From the UHGV virus genome UHGV-2038699: a DNA stretch of 25,477 nucleotides; one strand, 5' to 3'. A program made the position numbers and the translations under genes. Below, piece by piece: positions 1-4,744 of this stretch (the stretch's first letter is position 1; each line of letters begins with the position of its first letter). This DNA comes from a virus. The notes beneath the pieces were generated by a model. That model was not told the DNA's origin and searched no databases. It saw only the letters and a program-made list of their open reading frames with translations.

Positions 1-549
1 TCAGCTAGCTGGAAACTTTTTATACAGAGTTGAGAGCCCTACTCCATACGTTTTTGATACGCTTTGTCGTGATTCACCGGTTGCCATCCGCTCCCCCATT
101 TCCCGCCATTGCTCATCCGTGAACTTAGGCCTGCGACCACCAACTCGCCCTTTTGCCCTGGCTACGGCCAGCCCTGCTAAGGTACGTTCGCTATTAAGAT
201 CAGATTCATATTGTGCTGCGGAAAGGATGTTACGAAAGTTATAGCGGCCGCTGGCTGTTTTGAGATCCACGCCATCGGTAATACTGCGGAAGTTGATACC
301 CTTTTCCTGTAACTGCTGGAACATCAACAGCGCATGCAGAACGTTGCGGCCTATCCTGTCCAGCTTCCAGACCACCAGTTCATCCCCCGGCTGCATAATG
401 GCGATCAGCCGTTTTAGAACCGGCCGATTCGATTTCCTCCCGCTGGCATGCTCTTCAAAAATTTTCTCACAACCCGCTGACTTGAGCGCCGTTAGTTGCA
501 ATTCAGTGTCCTGGTGGTTTGTTGATACTCGGGCATAACCGTAAATCAT
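1..549 (-). CDS. pin: Serine-recombinase DNA invertase (Pin/Gin/Hin/Cin family)
   Basis: Translation from the ATG at 549 begins MIYGYARVSTNHQD with the catalytic Ser context (YARVST) of small serine invertases; C-terminal HTH. AGGAG RBS upstream. The ORF track extends to 594 via a GTG, but the ATG at 549 fits the family N-terminus. Confidence 0.85.
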   Translation of the reverse strand: MIYGYARVSTNHQDTELQLTALKSAGCEKIFEEHASGRKSNRPVLKRLIAIMQPGDELVVWKLDRIGRNVLHALLMFQQLQEKGINFRSITDGVDLKTASGRYNFRNILSAAQYESDLNSERTLAGLAVARAKGRVGGRRPKFTDEQWREMGERMATGESRQSVSKTYGVGLSTLYKKFPAS

Positions 550-553
550 GGGA

Positions 554-580
554 TTTCTCCTGTTATGAAAACAGGAGAAA
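554..580. promoter_or_regulatory. Perfect 10-bp palindrome (TTTCTCCTGT / ACAGGAGAAA) overlapping the invertase RBS
   Basis: Arms at 554-563 and 571-580 are exact reverse complements around a 7-nt spacer; the arm on the mRNA contains the AGGAG Shine-Dalgarno. Function (operator or RBS-sequestering hairpin) is inferred. Confidence 0.4.
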
Positions 581-601
581 CGGCGAAGCATCACCAGATT
601 T

Positions 602-1090
602 TTGATGGTTATAAAAAAGGTTGGTTTGGGAGAAACGATAAATAAAGCCTCCGGAGCTATGCAGAAATCGGCTAATGGATCTGATATTTCTGATGTATCA
701 GCCTTCCGAAATGCGCTCCAGTTAGGGACCGCCGCAACACGAGATGTTGGAGCAGATAATGCCTCGAAGTTACTGGATTTAGACAGCTTCAGGTCAATGA
801 TGTCAGGGAATGGCTACATCTACATTCCATGCATTGCGACGACAGGAAACCCGGTGAAACTTATGTTGCAGTGGGGAACGGTGGCAACACAAAAGGGAGC
901 TGATGCTGGATATGCCTTACCATTTGCTTTTCCCTATGCAGGCTTATTTGCGACCGGAAACCGTGGAACATCTGGCTACAATGCCGCGATGAATGTGCGT
1001 ATTGCCAGCAGAACGCATATCAGTATTCAGAACTGGTCGCCATCCGGAGAGGGCACCGAAGATTGTTGTTTTATCGCGCTGGGGTATTAA
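602..1090 (+). CDS. Alternative tail-fibre C-terminal (variable) cassette, promoterless in this orientation
   Basis: The ORF opens on TTG directly at the crossover site and encodes VGLGE... in the same frame as LGLGE in the expressed fibre. No independent RBS or ATG start. Expected to be fused to the constant N-terminal part after inversion. Confidence 0.6.
   Translation: MMVIKKVGLGETINKASGAMQKSANGSDISDVSAFRNALQLGTAATRDVGADNASKLLDLDSFRSMMSGNGYIYIPCIATTGNPVKLMLQWGTVATQKGADAGYALPFAFPYAGLFATGNRGTSGYNAAMNVRIASRTHISIQNWSPSGEGTEDCCFIALGY
609..634. repeat. Invertase crossover site, left (hix/gix-like 26-bp site)
   Basis: TTATAAAAAAGG-TT-GGTTTGGGAGAA. The half-site GGTTTGGGAGAA and the central TT are identical to the reverse complement of the site at 2518-2543; overall resembles hix/gix sites as I recall them. 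Confidence 0.7.
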
Positions 1091-1092
1091 GA

Positions 1093-1509
1093 ATGAATAA
1101 ATTTTATAAAGGCTCTTTCTATCCGAAAGCACTAAAAGAGGTATATATCAGCGCCGGTTCATGGCCTGAAAATGGCGTTGATGTTGATGATGAAACAATG
1201 GCAATTTACACAGGCGTAGCACCAGAAGGTAAAACGCTGGGGGCTGACAAAGATGGTAATCCTGCGTGGATTGATATCCCGCCACTCTCCGCTGAACAAC
1301 AGATTATTCAGGCTGAACAGAAAAGAACGGTATTGCGTTCTATGGCTGATAAGGAAATAGTCTGGAGACAGGATGCTTTTGATGCGGAAATTGCGACGGC
1401 AGAAGAAACCGCCGCGTTGTCTGAATGGAAAAAATACCGGGTCTTGCTGATGCGCGTTGATACATCAAATCCCGTCTGGCCTACGCCTCCGGGGGAGCAG
1501 GCCAATTGA
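1093..1509 (+). CDS. Alternative tail fibre assembly chaperone (Tfa'), silent orientation
   Basis: ATG at 1093 follows the upstream stop (1088-1090) by 2 nt; C-terminus ...NPVWPTPPGEQAN parallels the expressed chaperone end (...INWPAPPEA). Convergent, overlapping 3' ends (1481-1509). Confidence 0.6.
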   Translation: MNKFYKGSFYPKALKEVYISAGSWPENGVDVDDETMAIYTGVAPEGKTLGADKDGNPAWIDIPPLSAEQQIIQAEQKRTVLRSMADKEIVWRQDAFDAEIATAEETAALSEWKKYRVLLMRVDTSNPVWPTPPGEQAN

Positions 1510-2074
1510 TATCCGGCGCGGTGCTGGTATCCGTTGCCGTCACTGCGTCAATGTAATCAAGCACGGCGTTAAGCCGGGTTGTTTCTGCCTGCGTCAGCTT
1601 CCGCCCGGCCTGTAATTTCAGCTGAATCAGGCTGATGGAAGCCATTGCAGCATCAATCAGTGACTGGCGCTGTGCTTCTGCCGCTTCTACTGCGGCACCG
1701 TGTTGTGCCTCAGTATCTGTCACCCATTTCTCACCATCCCATTTATCATATGGCGTTAACGGTGAAAGCGTGACATAACCGTTTTTGATGGCACCGATAT
1801 AATCCACTGTAACAGCAGCACCATTTTCGATTGAGTAAACAGTCTCATTGCGATGGTCTTCTTCATGGCTCCATCCCTTACCTGTAAATACTGCCACTCT
1901 TCCCGGAATGTTTTCGCCAGGGTCAATACCAGTGGAACAGGCGGGCATACTTACGCCAGTATTAATATATTCATCAGACCAGCCCGTATACTCAGATGTT
2001 TCAGCATCATAATAAAAACAACGCATATCGCCCGGCACTGTAGCCAGCCCATTTTCATCAAAAACAGGTTTCAT
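1481..2074 (-). CDS. Tail fibre assembly chaperone (Tfa / Mu U-like)
   Basis: Start ATG overlaps the fibre stop (TAATG); GAGGG RBS; sits directly downstream of the fibre gene; sequence and position typical of tail fibre assembly proteins. Confidence 0.7.
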   Translation of the reverse strand: MKPVFDENGLATVPGDMRCFYYDAETSEYTGWSDEYINTGVSMPACSTGIDPGENIPGRVAVFTGKGWSHEEDHRNETVYSIENGAAVTVDYIGAIKNGYVTLSPLTPYDKWDGEKWVTDTEAQHGAAVEAAEAQRQSLIDAAMASISLIQLKLQAGRKLTQAETTRLNAVLDYIDAVTATDTSTAPDINWPAPPEA

Positions 2075-2868
2075 TATTTAGCCCTCACCAGAAAGTTAAA
2101 TGCAATATTTCGCGGTCTGACAGCAACAAAATTCACACCATCACCCACAGAGTTACTGGTGAAATTAAATCGTGAAAATCCTGGCTGATTTCCGGCGATG
2201 CCATCATGAAAGTTAATTGCGTGTCCCGCACCTCCGCCTATATTCCCGGCAAACTGAGAAAAGTTTGTAGCTTCCTGCCAGCTTAATAATTCGCGACCAC
2301 CATCGGCACCTCGCCCGTCATCCCAGATACGAATGAAATCACCGCGGGCTTCAGGTAATACCAGTGAAGGAAACACTTTCGCCAGCACAGGGTAATCAGA
2401 GGCAGAAAATTTCGCCCCGTTGAACTTCAAAAACACCATACTGGACCAGCTGTCGATTACAGTATTTGGCATTGCAGCGGACGGCCAGAAGAACGGAACG
2501 CCAATAGCTGGAGCACCTTCTCCCAAACCAAGGTTTTCGAGAGCCGTTTTCACCGTGCCATCCGATTTGATATCGCCAAACGGATTCTTGCGGCTCAGGT
2601 ATTCAACAGCAAACCCCGATCCCAGCAATTCAACAAAACCGGGCAGATCACCATTATCAAGCACATCCCGTTGCGTTTTATCACTTACAAACTGGGCCAG
2701 AGCTGCAGCAATAAAGCTGGCCTGTCGAATAACCTTATTGACTTGCGCACTGGATGCTTTCCCTGCTGTAAATCCGGATATAAGCGCAGGCAACGCTTCC
2801 CATTCCTCCTGCGACATAACATTGGCATTCCGATCAGTTGCAAACGCTTTAAAGTCATTTTTCGCCAT
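2074..2868 (-). CDS. Side tail fibre protein: constant N-terminal part (2544-2868) plus variable C-terminal part inside the invertible segment
   Basis: C-terminus (...[13 protein letters not shown]...[18 protein letters not shown]...[12 protein letters not shown]) resembles lambda Stf / Mu S-type fibre C-termini. The crossover site lies in-frame at codons for ENLGLGE. Start at 2868 (TGATG overlap with upstream stop); an alternative ATG at 2886 gives 6 more residues. Confidence 0.7.
2518..2543. repeat. Invertase crossover site, right (inside the tail fibre gene)
   Basis: TTCTCCCAAACC-AA-GGTTTTCGAGAG. The first 14 nt are a perfect inverted match to 621-634; encodes LGLGE in the fibre reading frame. 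Confidence 0.7.
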
Positions 2869-3548
2869 CAGAGTAATACTCCCCATGCCCCTACATCAAA
2901 ACCACTGATGTATTCGTTATCAATATCAAACCCAAAGAATTTAGAACCCTCGGAAGGTGTTTCAACCGAAGGCGTTTCAACATCACCGGCCCATACGCCA
3001 GCTGATTTAACGGTGAGATAGCCCTGTTTGATAGCGGCGATCAGTTCGAGAGACACATCAGAAATATCAGTTTCAGGGAAAACCCAGACCGAAATCGTCA
3101 TGTCCTGGTTGTCGACGATCTGCATCCTCAGGCCTGAGCCTGCGGTAGCAGCGTCAAGGATGGGAGGCAGAGAGTCGTTCCGACCGTCCCAGTTGTTGAT
3201 AGCGATTTTCGCTTTCAGAATGATGCGGTACGTCTCATCGCTTAGAGTCGTATAGCCAGAATCAGGATCATATGGCCCTTGCCAGATGCCCTGGTCATAC
3301 CCAAGCCCGTCAGTGTCCCAGCTGAAATAAACTCCGCTAATTGGCTGGCTGACTATGCGACTGCGTCCGATCCACAGACCGAGGATGTCGAGCTGTACAC
3401 CGACAGCAGTATCGATATCGAAGGCTGTTATAAGCCCTGACATAGTGCTGGACACATCAATCAGCGGGCGGGTGCTCAGATCTATATGGTCAAAAAAGAG
3501 TGGCTTGGTAGCGTGGTAGTTAGTGATCAGTTCGGTGTATTTGCTCAT
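2868..3548 (-). CDS. Baseplate/tail protein (P2 gpI / Mu gp48 / e14 YmfQ-like position)
   Basis: 226 aa; ATGA start/stop overlap with the J-like gene upstream; lies between the baseplate J-like gene and the tail fibre as in Mu/e14-type tails. Family assigned mainly by synteny. Confidence 0.5.
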
Positions 3549-4744
3549 GAGGTCACCGTGATACTGATATTCGCGGTGCTACAGGACGCTGAAGCATCAT
3601 AGGCAATATCAATGTTTGATGCCGATACGCTGCCAGACGACTTACCGATCAGCAGGTCGGTAATATCGTAATAGCGGGCATTCCCGCCGCTCACAACGCC
3701 GAGGTTTGCCGGGGAATAAATACGGCTCAGCAGAACGTCGTCGCCAATTGTTAGGCCATTTATATAATCGGCAACAGCCTGTTTAATCTGCTCGCCGATT
3801 TGAGAGGTATAGCCGGTAAAAACTTTCAGGGTAATGGCTACGAAAATTGGCACATCGGTAGAGCGTGAAAAACTGATGACGTGAGGATTACCGTAAGTAT
3901 CCGGCACCGTGACAGAAGTTGTCCCGTAGGTTGCCGTTCCCTGTCCTTTATTCCCCCTGATGGTCTGGGCTATTTCGGTAACATCCCCACCATCGACGAT
4001 GGCGGAAATTGAGTGCGGCGGTAGCCCGTTGCTGTCTGTTGTTCCTGTGTCGTTCTCATACAACTTGTGACGTGTCACGCCAGCAACGTTAGCTATTGCA
4101 CCGTCGACACCTTCAAACGGTGTGATCGATGGTAGCGCGACGCTTTGCGACTGGCGGATACGTAACTCCGCATCAGTTTCTGCTGGAGTGCCTACAGTAG
4201 CTGCAGCAGGATTGGTTACCGAAACCCAGCCACGAGTCGGTGTGTTAATGGTGGTAATAGTCCCGGCCATCGCAGCAACCGAACCGCTATTCGCACATGT
4301 GGCCGTCACCAGCACAGTACCATCAACGCCGATCGCTACACTTGCGGGAAAATTCCAGATAATGCCGTTTTTATCCCGTGCGGAGCCATTCGTGATAGTC
4401 GTGCCTGCCGTACCGGTTAACAGAAGGTCAGCAGTAGAGTTTGTCGCTACTTTTCGCGTGATCCCGTTAATTTTCACATTGTTGCTAAGCGCTGCGGCCT
4501 GCGCTGTCGTCGGTGAAAAAGAGTTGTAGATCTCGATAGCGGTATTGTTAGCGTCATGCACCGCAAGAGCCACCAGCGCGACCATTTGCCCATCTTTGCT
4601 GTCTGGTTCGAGGTAGGCATCACTACCGTAAATCTGCCTGAAATAGCTGGTCAGTGTATCAAGGATTGTCTGGTAATCAGGCGCACTAATCCCCTGGGCG
4701 GTTACCGTTGCCGATAGCCCCAGCGTGTCGAGGTTCAAAGCCAT
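3545..4744 (-). CDS. Baseplate J-like protein (P2 gpJ / Mu gp47-like)
   Basis: 399 aa, tightly packed between the W-like and I-like genes; size and position match baseplate wedge J proteins. Confidence 0.6.
   Translation of the reverse strand: MALNLDTLGLSATVTAQGISAPDYQTILDTLTSYFRQIYGSDAYLEPDSKDGQMVALVALAVHDANNTAIEIYNSFSPTTAQAAALSNNVKINGITRKVATNSTADLLLTGTAGTTITNGSARDKNGIIWNFPASVAIGVDGTVLVTATCANSGSVAAMAGTITTINTPTRGWVSVTNPAAATVGTPAETDAELRIRQSQSVALPSITPFEGVDGAIANVAGVTRHKLYENDTGTTDSNGLPPHSISAIVDGGDVTEIAQTIRGNKGQGTATYGTTSVTVPDTYGNPHVISFSRSTDVPIFVAITLKVFTGYTSQIGEQIKQAVADYINGLTIGDDVLLSRIYSPANLGVVSGGNARYYDITDLLIGKSSGSVSASNIDIAYDASASCSTANISITVTS

Follow-up and report, generated by a model that had tools for sequence, protein, structure and literature searches.

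The window analysed here, a stretch of 25,477 bp, carries at its left end a prophage tail-fibre inversion module on the minus strand. An open reading frame at its margin encodes a DNA invertase with the Pfam domains Resolvase (5.6e-39) and HTH_7 (1.5e-09); among solved structures, its best relative is Mu Gin (3uj3, 2.5e-56). The invertases of phi80 (pinL), HK225, and mEp237 are 98.9-99.5% identical to it, with an amino acid identity of 98.9% for phi80 pinL. Two inverted crossover sites bound an invertible segment of about 1.9 kb, which according to the open reading frame layout encodes two alternative tail-fibre C-termini and their assembly genes. Judged from the sequence by its protein domains, its crossover sites, and its exchangeable fibre ends, the module is a Din-family (Gin/Cin/Pin/Hin) invertase system. 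Its main features are the following:

1-549, minus strand: DNA invertase gene, pinL type, 182 aa (open reading frame; ATG at 549-547, stop codon TGA at 3-1)
460-531, minus strand: putative recombinational enhancer in the 5' part of the invertase gene, assigned by homology only
609-634: proximal crossover site, reading TTCTCCCAAACC AA CCTTTTTTATAA on the minus strand; inverted repeat with 2518-2537
2518-2543: distal crossover site within the tail-fibre gene, TTCTCCCAAACC AA GGTTTTCGAGAG; inverted repeat

The putative enhancer corresponds in alignment to +19..+90 of P1 cin, where an enhancer is annotated. Homology among relatives stops at the proximal crossover site, and an E. coli prophage adjoining yciI-tonB is 99.9% identical to the inversion-module region. 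The tail-fibre operon and the invertase gene are co-directional, and the open reading frame layout gives no evident terminator between them.

Two further observations were made in this region. A 24-nt inverted repeat (88% complementary) connects the silent tail-fibre C-terminal segment (676-699) with a DUF2612 baseplate gene (3052-3075), and both copies encode a ...DISDVS... peptide. In addition, a sub-threshold Rfam match to IS009 (RF02111; 39.7 bits compared to a gathering threshold of 117, E 4.8e-07) covers 1293-1469 on the plus strand, within a tail-fibre assembly gene of the invertible segment.

Structure of the invertase leader

A perfect palindrome at 554-580 lies between the proximal crossover site and the invertase start codon, as the first-pass annotation had described. 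The plus strand reads TTTCTCCTGTT ATGAA AACAGGAGAAA, and an inverted-repeat search returned arms of 11 nt (554-564 and 570-580), which are 100% complementary and enclose a 5-nt loop. The palindrome had been described as a 10-bp repeat with a 7-nt spacer, which is one pair short. In the minus-strand transcript, 5'-G UUUCUCCUGUU UUCAU AACAGGAGAAA UCCC AUG, an additional G581·U553 pair closes the hairpin, referred to here as H2, and extends it to 12 pairs. The Shine-Dalgarno (SD) sequence AGGAG (561->557) is located within the 3' arm, in agreement with the earlier description, and is separated from the ATG by 7 nt (AAAUCCC), of which 4 lie outside the stem. The elements of the leader are, in order of position:

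550-553, minus strand: spacer UCCC, 4 nt, between hairpin and ATG (4-6 nt and variable in sequence among relatives)
554-564, minus strand: 3' arm of H2, AACAGGAGAAA, with the SD AGGAG at 561->557
565-569, minus strand: loop of H2, UUCAU (UUCAC, UUUAC, or UUUAU in relatives)
570-580, minus strand: 5' arm of H2, UUUCUCCUGUU, anti-SD, non-coding
581-596, minus strand: small hairpin H1, GGUGA UGCU UCGCC, -6.7 kcal/mol, directly 5' of H2
587-615, minus strand: predicted weak sigma-70 promoter from a weight-matrix scan (-35 TTTATA at 615-610, 17-nt spacer, -10 GATGCT at 592-587)

Apart from H2, no perfect hairpin in the window combines a stem of 9 bp or more with a loop of 3-10 nt. By chance, stems of 11 bp or more are expected 0.033 times per window, as determined from 300 dinucleotide-preserving shuffles.

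RNA folding of the invertase 5' UTR had been proposed as a check of SD sequestration, and its outcome agrees with that proposal. The 121-nt leader folds at -28.8 kcal/mol compared to -16.2 +/- 3.0 kcal/mol for shuffled sequences (z = -4.25), and the H2 stem, including the closing G·U pair, has an energy of -15.4 kcal/mol. The SD is fully paired (probability of being unpaired 0.00), a value that was not reached once when the upstream sequence was shuffled 200 times, even though shuffled leaders still pair the purine-rich SD to some extent (mean probability unpaired about 0.2). Opening the region from -20 to +13 is predicted to cost 19.5 kcal/mol, the highest value among the 28 putative genes of the window (median 10.8), and transversion of the 5' arm of H2 in silico lowered this cost to 8.8 kcal/mol. 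In the predictions, SD occlusion persisted for transcription starts down to about -28. The predicted leader thus has its SD paired in a stable stem close to the start codon, as expected for an SD-sequestering leader hairpin.

RNA thermometers of the fourU or ROSE type cover the SD with an imperfect stem that opens between about 30 and 42 °C. Such a thermometer was rejected in view of the perfect stem of H2, which retains -13.9 kcal/mol at 42 °C and -6.4 kcal/mol at 70 °C. Rfam covariance models searched over positions 1-3000 (E <= 1) gave no match overlapping the leader.

H1 is conserved across the leader class, and H1 and H2 stack coaxially in the minimum free energy structure. One pair of H1 (19-28 in the alignment) occurs as C-G (14), U·G (5), or U-A (1). 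The U·G step points to a function at the level of RNA, because it pairs only in the minus-strand (sense) RNA. The predicted promoter overlaps this hairpin: its -35 element is located at the outer end of the crossover site and its -10 element in the H1 loop, so that transcription would begin at the base of H2, about 31 nt ahead of the ATG. In most variants of the leader class this site is again the top-scoring one, with the -10 element as GATNYT. A scan for consensus promoters called none on the invertase strand, leader included, and in the Cappable-seq supplements no start was matched near e14 pinE. Transcripts that start at the base of H2 or further upstream, as well as read-through from the tail-fibre operon, would contain the full hairpin, and the 5' arm would be transcribed in each case.

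Two other signals in the leader region were inspected. An in-frame GTG/ATG in the H1 loop (589-594 on the minus strand; ATG at 591-589) was rejected as a start. Its use would lengthen the invertase by 14-15 aa, with translation passing through the hairpin, but other leader variants do not conserve it and the phi80 type has a different frame, so it is probably unused. On the plus strand, a promoter-like site at 522-549 (TTGATA, 16-nt spacer, AATCAT) is antisense to the first invertase codons and faces the palindrome, with the invertible segment beyond it. RNA initiated here would be complementary to the leader. This site may be a coding accident, because its hexamers complement conserved codons (ATGATT, GTATCAA) and such sites are fewer than in shuffles.

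A predicted start at the base of H2 would put the hairpin flush with the 5' end of the mRNA. Together with the coaxial stacking of H1 and H2, this would suit an element that chiefly serves mRNA 5'-end stability or processing, either as a 5'-terminal stem-loop against RNase E or as a stacked H1-H2 substrate of RNase III, with SD occlusion being incidental. We regard such a role as very unlikely, since it leaves the coincidence of stem and SD unexplained, both here and in three unrelated invertase leaders described below. Moreover, the stacked helix of about 17 pairs is short for RNase III, and the transcription start is itself a prediction.

The first-pass annotation had also suggested that H2 terminates transcripts coming out of the invertible segment. 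This proposal did not hold and H2 was rejected as an intrinsic terminator: only 4 of its 11 pairs are G-C, the stem is followed by UCCCAUGA on the minus strand and by CGGCGAAG on the plus strand, so that a U-tract is lacking on either strand, and the terminator scan did not call it. At the leader the scan flagged only H1, which is followed by GUUUCUCCUGUUUU and owes its terminator-like appearance to the U-rich 5' arm of H2 alone. A plus-strand terminator formed by H1 was likewise rejected, as the wobble becomes a C·A mismatch on that strand in the window variant and the downstream T-run is not conserved.

A broader version of this idea treats H1 (596-581) and H2 jointly as a transcriptional insulator or terminator, resembling the left end of IS200. 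Late transcripts of the tail-fibre operon cross the silent half of the segment in antisense, and the two hairpins would keep them out of the invertase gene. The co-directional layout with no terminator evident in between and the terminator-like signal at H1 speak for such an element, and IS200 indeed has both a terminator hairpin and a stem-loop that sequesters the SD (PMC4513863). The signals themselves fit poorly, however. H2 with its few G-C pairs runs into UCCCAUGAUUUACGG, H1 comprises only 5-6 bp at -6.7 kcal/mol with an interrupted U-tract, and the scan found 3 terminator-like sites compared to 3.7 in shuffled sequences. In addition, the antisense RNA upstream, roughly 900 nt that are not translated, would probably be open to Rho anyway. 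We therefore consider an insulator quite unlikely.

Conservation of the palindrome

We analyzed the distribution of the element in IMG/VR. The pattern TTCTCCTGTT-N5-AACAGGAGAA occurred in 90 contigs, and all 90 copies were located 4-6 nt before the ATG of a MIYGY invertase; the element is tied exclusively to the invertase gene. Among 93 IMG/VR loci collected via the gene start alone, the perfect palindrome was present in 79. Four loci had one mismatch in the 5' arm, with the SD-covering part of the stem still paired, while the remaining 10 had unrelated leaders. The hairpin is kept in Escherichia, Trabulsiella, Kluyvera, Pseudocitrobacter, Shimwellia, and Apirhabdus.

Pairwise identity and invariant columns were determined over 18 distinct leaders:

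5' arm of H2: 98% pairwise identity, 9/11 columns invariant
3' arm of H2: 99% pairwise identity, 10/11 columns invariant
4-fold synonymous sites of the same genes: 50% identity, 0/43 invariant
Upstream of H1: 62% identity, 2/16 columns invariant
H1 loop: 58% identity, 0/4 columns invariant
Spacer to the ATG: 74% identity, 0/5 columns invariant

Conserved arms and freely varying positions interleave at a scale of 5-10 nt. Synonymous sites are near saturation, yet conservation of the non-coding 5' arm matches that of the SD-bearing arm. The contrast between 98-99% identity in the arms and 50% at synonymous sites therefore indicates that the non-coding 5' arm of H2 is under strong purifying selection.

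Short inverted repeats do arise by chance, and a functionless repeat of this kind has to be considered for any palindrome. In the present case the shuffle count given above, the invariance across genera against the background of synonymous divergence, and the single gene position shared by all copies effectively refute a chance origin, to which we assign next to no probability.

Covariation in H2 is minimal. Eight of the 11 pairs never vary, and only one pair (32-58 in the alignment) changes on both sides, by a compensatory replacement of U-A by C-G. What is conserved in the arms is therefore their sequence as well as their pairing. This invariance is partly explained by the 3' arm, since its AACAGGAGA is an old SD context, common to Mu gin, which forces its complement. 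By its 98% identity, the compensatory pair in H2, and the C-G/U·G/U-A series in H1, the anti-SD arm is under selection for pairing, with the covariation itself being weak.

Conservation in sequence beyond the needs of pairing is the main argument for a different function of the palindrome, namely as a double-stranded DNA site for a dimeric protein that represses transcription of the invertase gene. Candidate proteins are the invertase, for which the site could be an autoregulatory operator or a pseudo-crossover site, and a phage or host regulator. Related serine recombinases, the Tn3 and gamma-delta resolvases, autoregulate by binding res and thus provide a precedent. Like the Din-family sites (gix, hix, cix, pix), the palindrome has dyad symmetry and a comparable length (25 compared to 26 bp), and its outer hexamers TTCTCC/GGAGAA are also found at the outer end of the crossover half-site TTCTCCCAAACC. 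A TTCTCC match is expected of any anti-SD, however, and the Din-family sites differ in their two 12-bp half-sites with the inner motif AAACC, their 2-bp crossover core, and the spacing of their arms. As the palindrome has TGTTTT/AAAACA as inner sequences, contains neither AAACC nor a core dinucleotide, and has its ACAGG motifs 5 bp closer than in the symmetrised gix site, we rejected its identity as a crossover or pseudo-crossover site. Several observations rather point to RNA: the leaders of P1 cin and of the mEpX1 type cover the SD using G·U pairs, which would be mismatches in DNA; natural variants mutated in one arm have lost the symmetry but not the pairing of the SD; and the U·G pair of the neighbouring H1 is valid in sense RNA only. 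The palindrome was moreover found at the invertase gene only. Of the protein-binding option in the first-pass annotation, the arm conservation is what stands, and we consider a protein site unlikely overall.

The palindrome could also act as DNA within the invertasome or as an invertase operator, with SD occlusion being half the story. It is located midway in a stretch of about 100 bp that leads from the crossover site to the putative Fis-bound enhancer (about 460-531), and the distance between crossover site and hairpin is fixed and indel-free. An AT-centred 11-bp palindrome in this place could extrude a cruciform or form a bending or HU-binding hinge, aiding the tight loop required by such a geometry. 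A role of this kind would explain both the conservation of the arms at the level of sequence and the fixed distance; we regard it as a long shot.

Comparison of individual genomes revealed mosaic combinations of leader and coding sequence. The leader of phi80 belongs to another subtype than that of the window, despite the 98.9% identity of the invertases. SKA5 (locus L256) is a leader/coding mosaic relative to phi80 (L001): it has a phi80-type leader with 1 nt difference, while its invertase gene, leader included, matches the DNA of the window at only 73% identity. In phage phi458 (L258), an IS1 is inserted beside the module and the annotated invertase is a fragment of only 93 aa; the leader hairpin is intact.

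Proposed translational control of the invertase and known systems

Of the three functions initially offered for the palindrome, a throttle on translation through sequestration of the SD is best supported by the folding and conservation analyses, and we consider it probable that H2 is a constitutive cis-acting translational throttle on the invertase. According to this model, the palindrome would be the DNA template of a very stable hairpin in the invertase 5' leader (about -15 kcal/mol), with the 3' arm as the SD region and the 5' arm as a dedicated anti-SD. H2 would throttle translation because the hairpin must melt before the 30S subunit can bind. Transcripts with both arms, originating from the weak promoter of the gene or from tail-fibre read-through, would yield very little invertase, and the low level of invertase would keep inversion of the tail-fibre segment rare. 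From the difference in opening energy of ~10.7 kcal/mol, we estimate that translation could be cut by two or more orders of magnitude. We infer the throttling, and with it a limit on inversion frequency, from a leader whose transcription start is predicted.

The amount of invertase determines how fast tail fibres are switched, and this inversion in turn sets the host range of a phage population. Limits on the supply of Din-family invertases have been described far less than the chemistry of recombination. If the proposed function is correct, H2 would provide a simple, mutable handle on switching frequency in widespread enterobacterial prophages, among them phi80, HK225, mEp237, and many Myoviridae-type prophages, and it would be relevant to the reuse of pinL- or Gin-type invertases as genetic switches.

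We compared the leader to those of other invertase and recombinase genes, as had been suggested at the outset for the gin/hin/pin leaders. The picture is mixed. The P1 cin leader occludes its SD by a 9-bp stem of unrelated sequence with two G·U pairs (shuffle p 0.005), and occlusion was also found in the e14-type pin leader (p 0.025-0.03) and the mEpX1-type leader (p 0.05). It was absent in the leaders of Mu gin, P7 cin, and the MIIGY class. Several hairpins of the e14/P2 type were no better than shuffles (p 0.1-0.5). In 116 diverse metagenomic leaders of MIYGY..RVST recombinases, the median probability of an unpaired SD was 0.42; 3.4% fell below 0.05, and one of these was the H2 element itself. 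By these predictions, SD occlusion is no general trait of serine recombinase leaders. A formal covariation analysis between the window class and the e14/P2-type leaders was abandoned, as the polypurine and polypyrimidine arms shift register. A literature search returned nothing relevant on leader control, autoregulation, or promoters of gin, cin, or pin.

The e14-, P2-, and Mu-type leaders share the motif TGGCAT(C/G)AT, which fits an extended -10 element (TGnTATAAT). It was located in e14 pinE (L100, ~4650-4685), pro483 (L101, ~1165-1200), Mu gin (L083, ~4055-4092), and the loci L102-L255. This motif is directly followed by the anti-SD in the e14 and P2 types. Mu gin has the same SD context as the window, AAACAGGAGA (L083, 4078-4088), without a local 5' arm. 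Some 55 nt further upstream, the gix half-site UUUCCUGU (gixR, L083, 4012-4020) forms the complement of ACAGGAGA; the predicted fold of Mu gin places its GUG start, and not its SD, in a stem.

SD occlusion by a leader hairpin is a familiar type of control, and H2 opens no new kind of mechanism. The repeat itself is already marked in the phi80 record (GenBank JX871397), in which the same element is annotated as IR3, a repeat_region with 11-bp arms directly upstream of pinL (L001, 3055-3065 and 3071-3081). Its core TTCTCCTGTT / AACAGGAGAA is identical to that of the window, whereas the outermost pair is C-G instead of U-A, the loop is UUUAC, and the spacer to the ATG is 6 nt long. In contrast to the window, phi80 keeps only a relic tail-collar fragment and not a working invertible segment. 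The record gives IR3 no function, and our literature search returned none either.

Within the same invertase family, P1 cin offers a parallel of different sequence. Its stem GCUUGCUAU / AUAGUGAGC holds the annotated ribosome-binding site 'GAG' in the 3' arm. The record also predicts a promoter, P1cin, whose -10 element stops 5 nt short of the stem. The P1 cin stem is weaker than H2 (-10 kcal/mol) and unrelated to it in sequence, and the 3' end of the gene, not the leader, adjoins the crossover site.

Transposons have related devices. Fold-back inhibition of read-through transcripts has reportedly been described for IS10 and IS50 (Davis, Simons & Kleckner 1985; Schulz & Reznikoff 1991). In these elements, transcripts initiated outside remain untranslated because their translation initiation region is paired with a complementary segment upstream; the promoter of the element starts inside the structure and its own transcripts escape. 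The window class differs from this arrangement, since with a start predicted at the hairpin base all transcripts would be blocked. Leaders of the e14/P2 and mEpX1 types may fit the IS10 pattern better. In the e14/P2 type, the extended -10-like motif would put the start downstream of the anti-SD, so that own-promoter transcripts may lack the anti-SD, with only read-through being blocked.

By analogy, the leader of the IS200 transposase would be the closest tested counterpart of H2. The SD of IS200 tnpA is sequestered in a stem-loop. This strongly lowers translation as well as transposition, and disruption of the stem raises both; a separate terminator hairpin at the left end guards against impinging transcription (PMC4513863). 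Both leaders belong to a recombinase whose expression has to be kept very low, cover a near-consensus SD with a stem-loop, and have a second hairpin directly upstream. The enzymes are different, an HUH transposase in IS200 and a serine invertase in the window, and the IS200 stem is longer and imperfect, whereas H2 is perfect. IS200 is further assisted by the antisense RNA art200 and Hfq, neither of which is known for the window leader. Overall, if H2 acts as proposed, invertases and transposases would converge on SD occlusion in the leader as a means of self-restraint.
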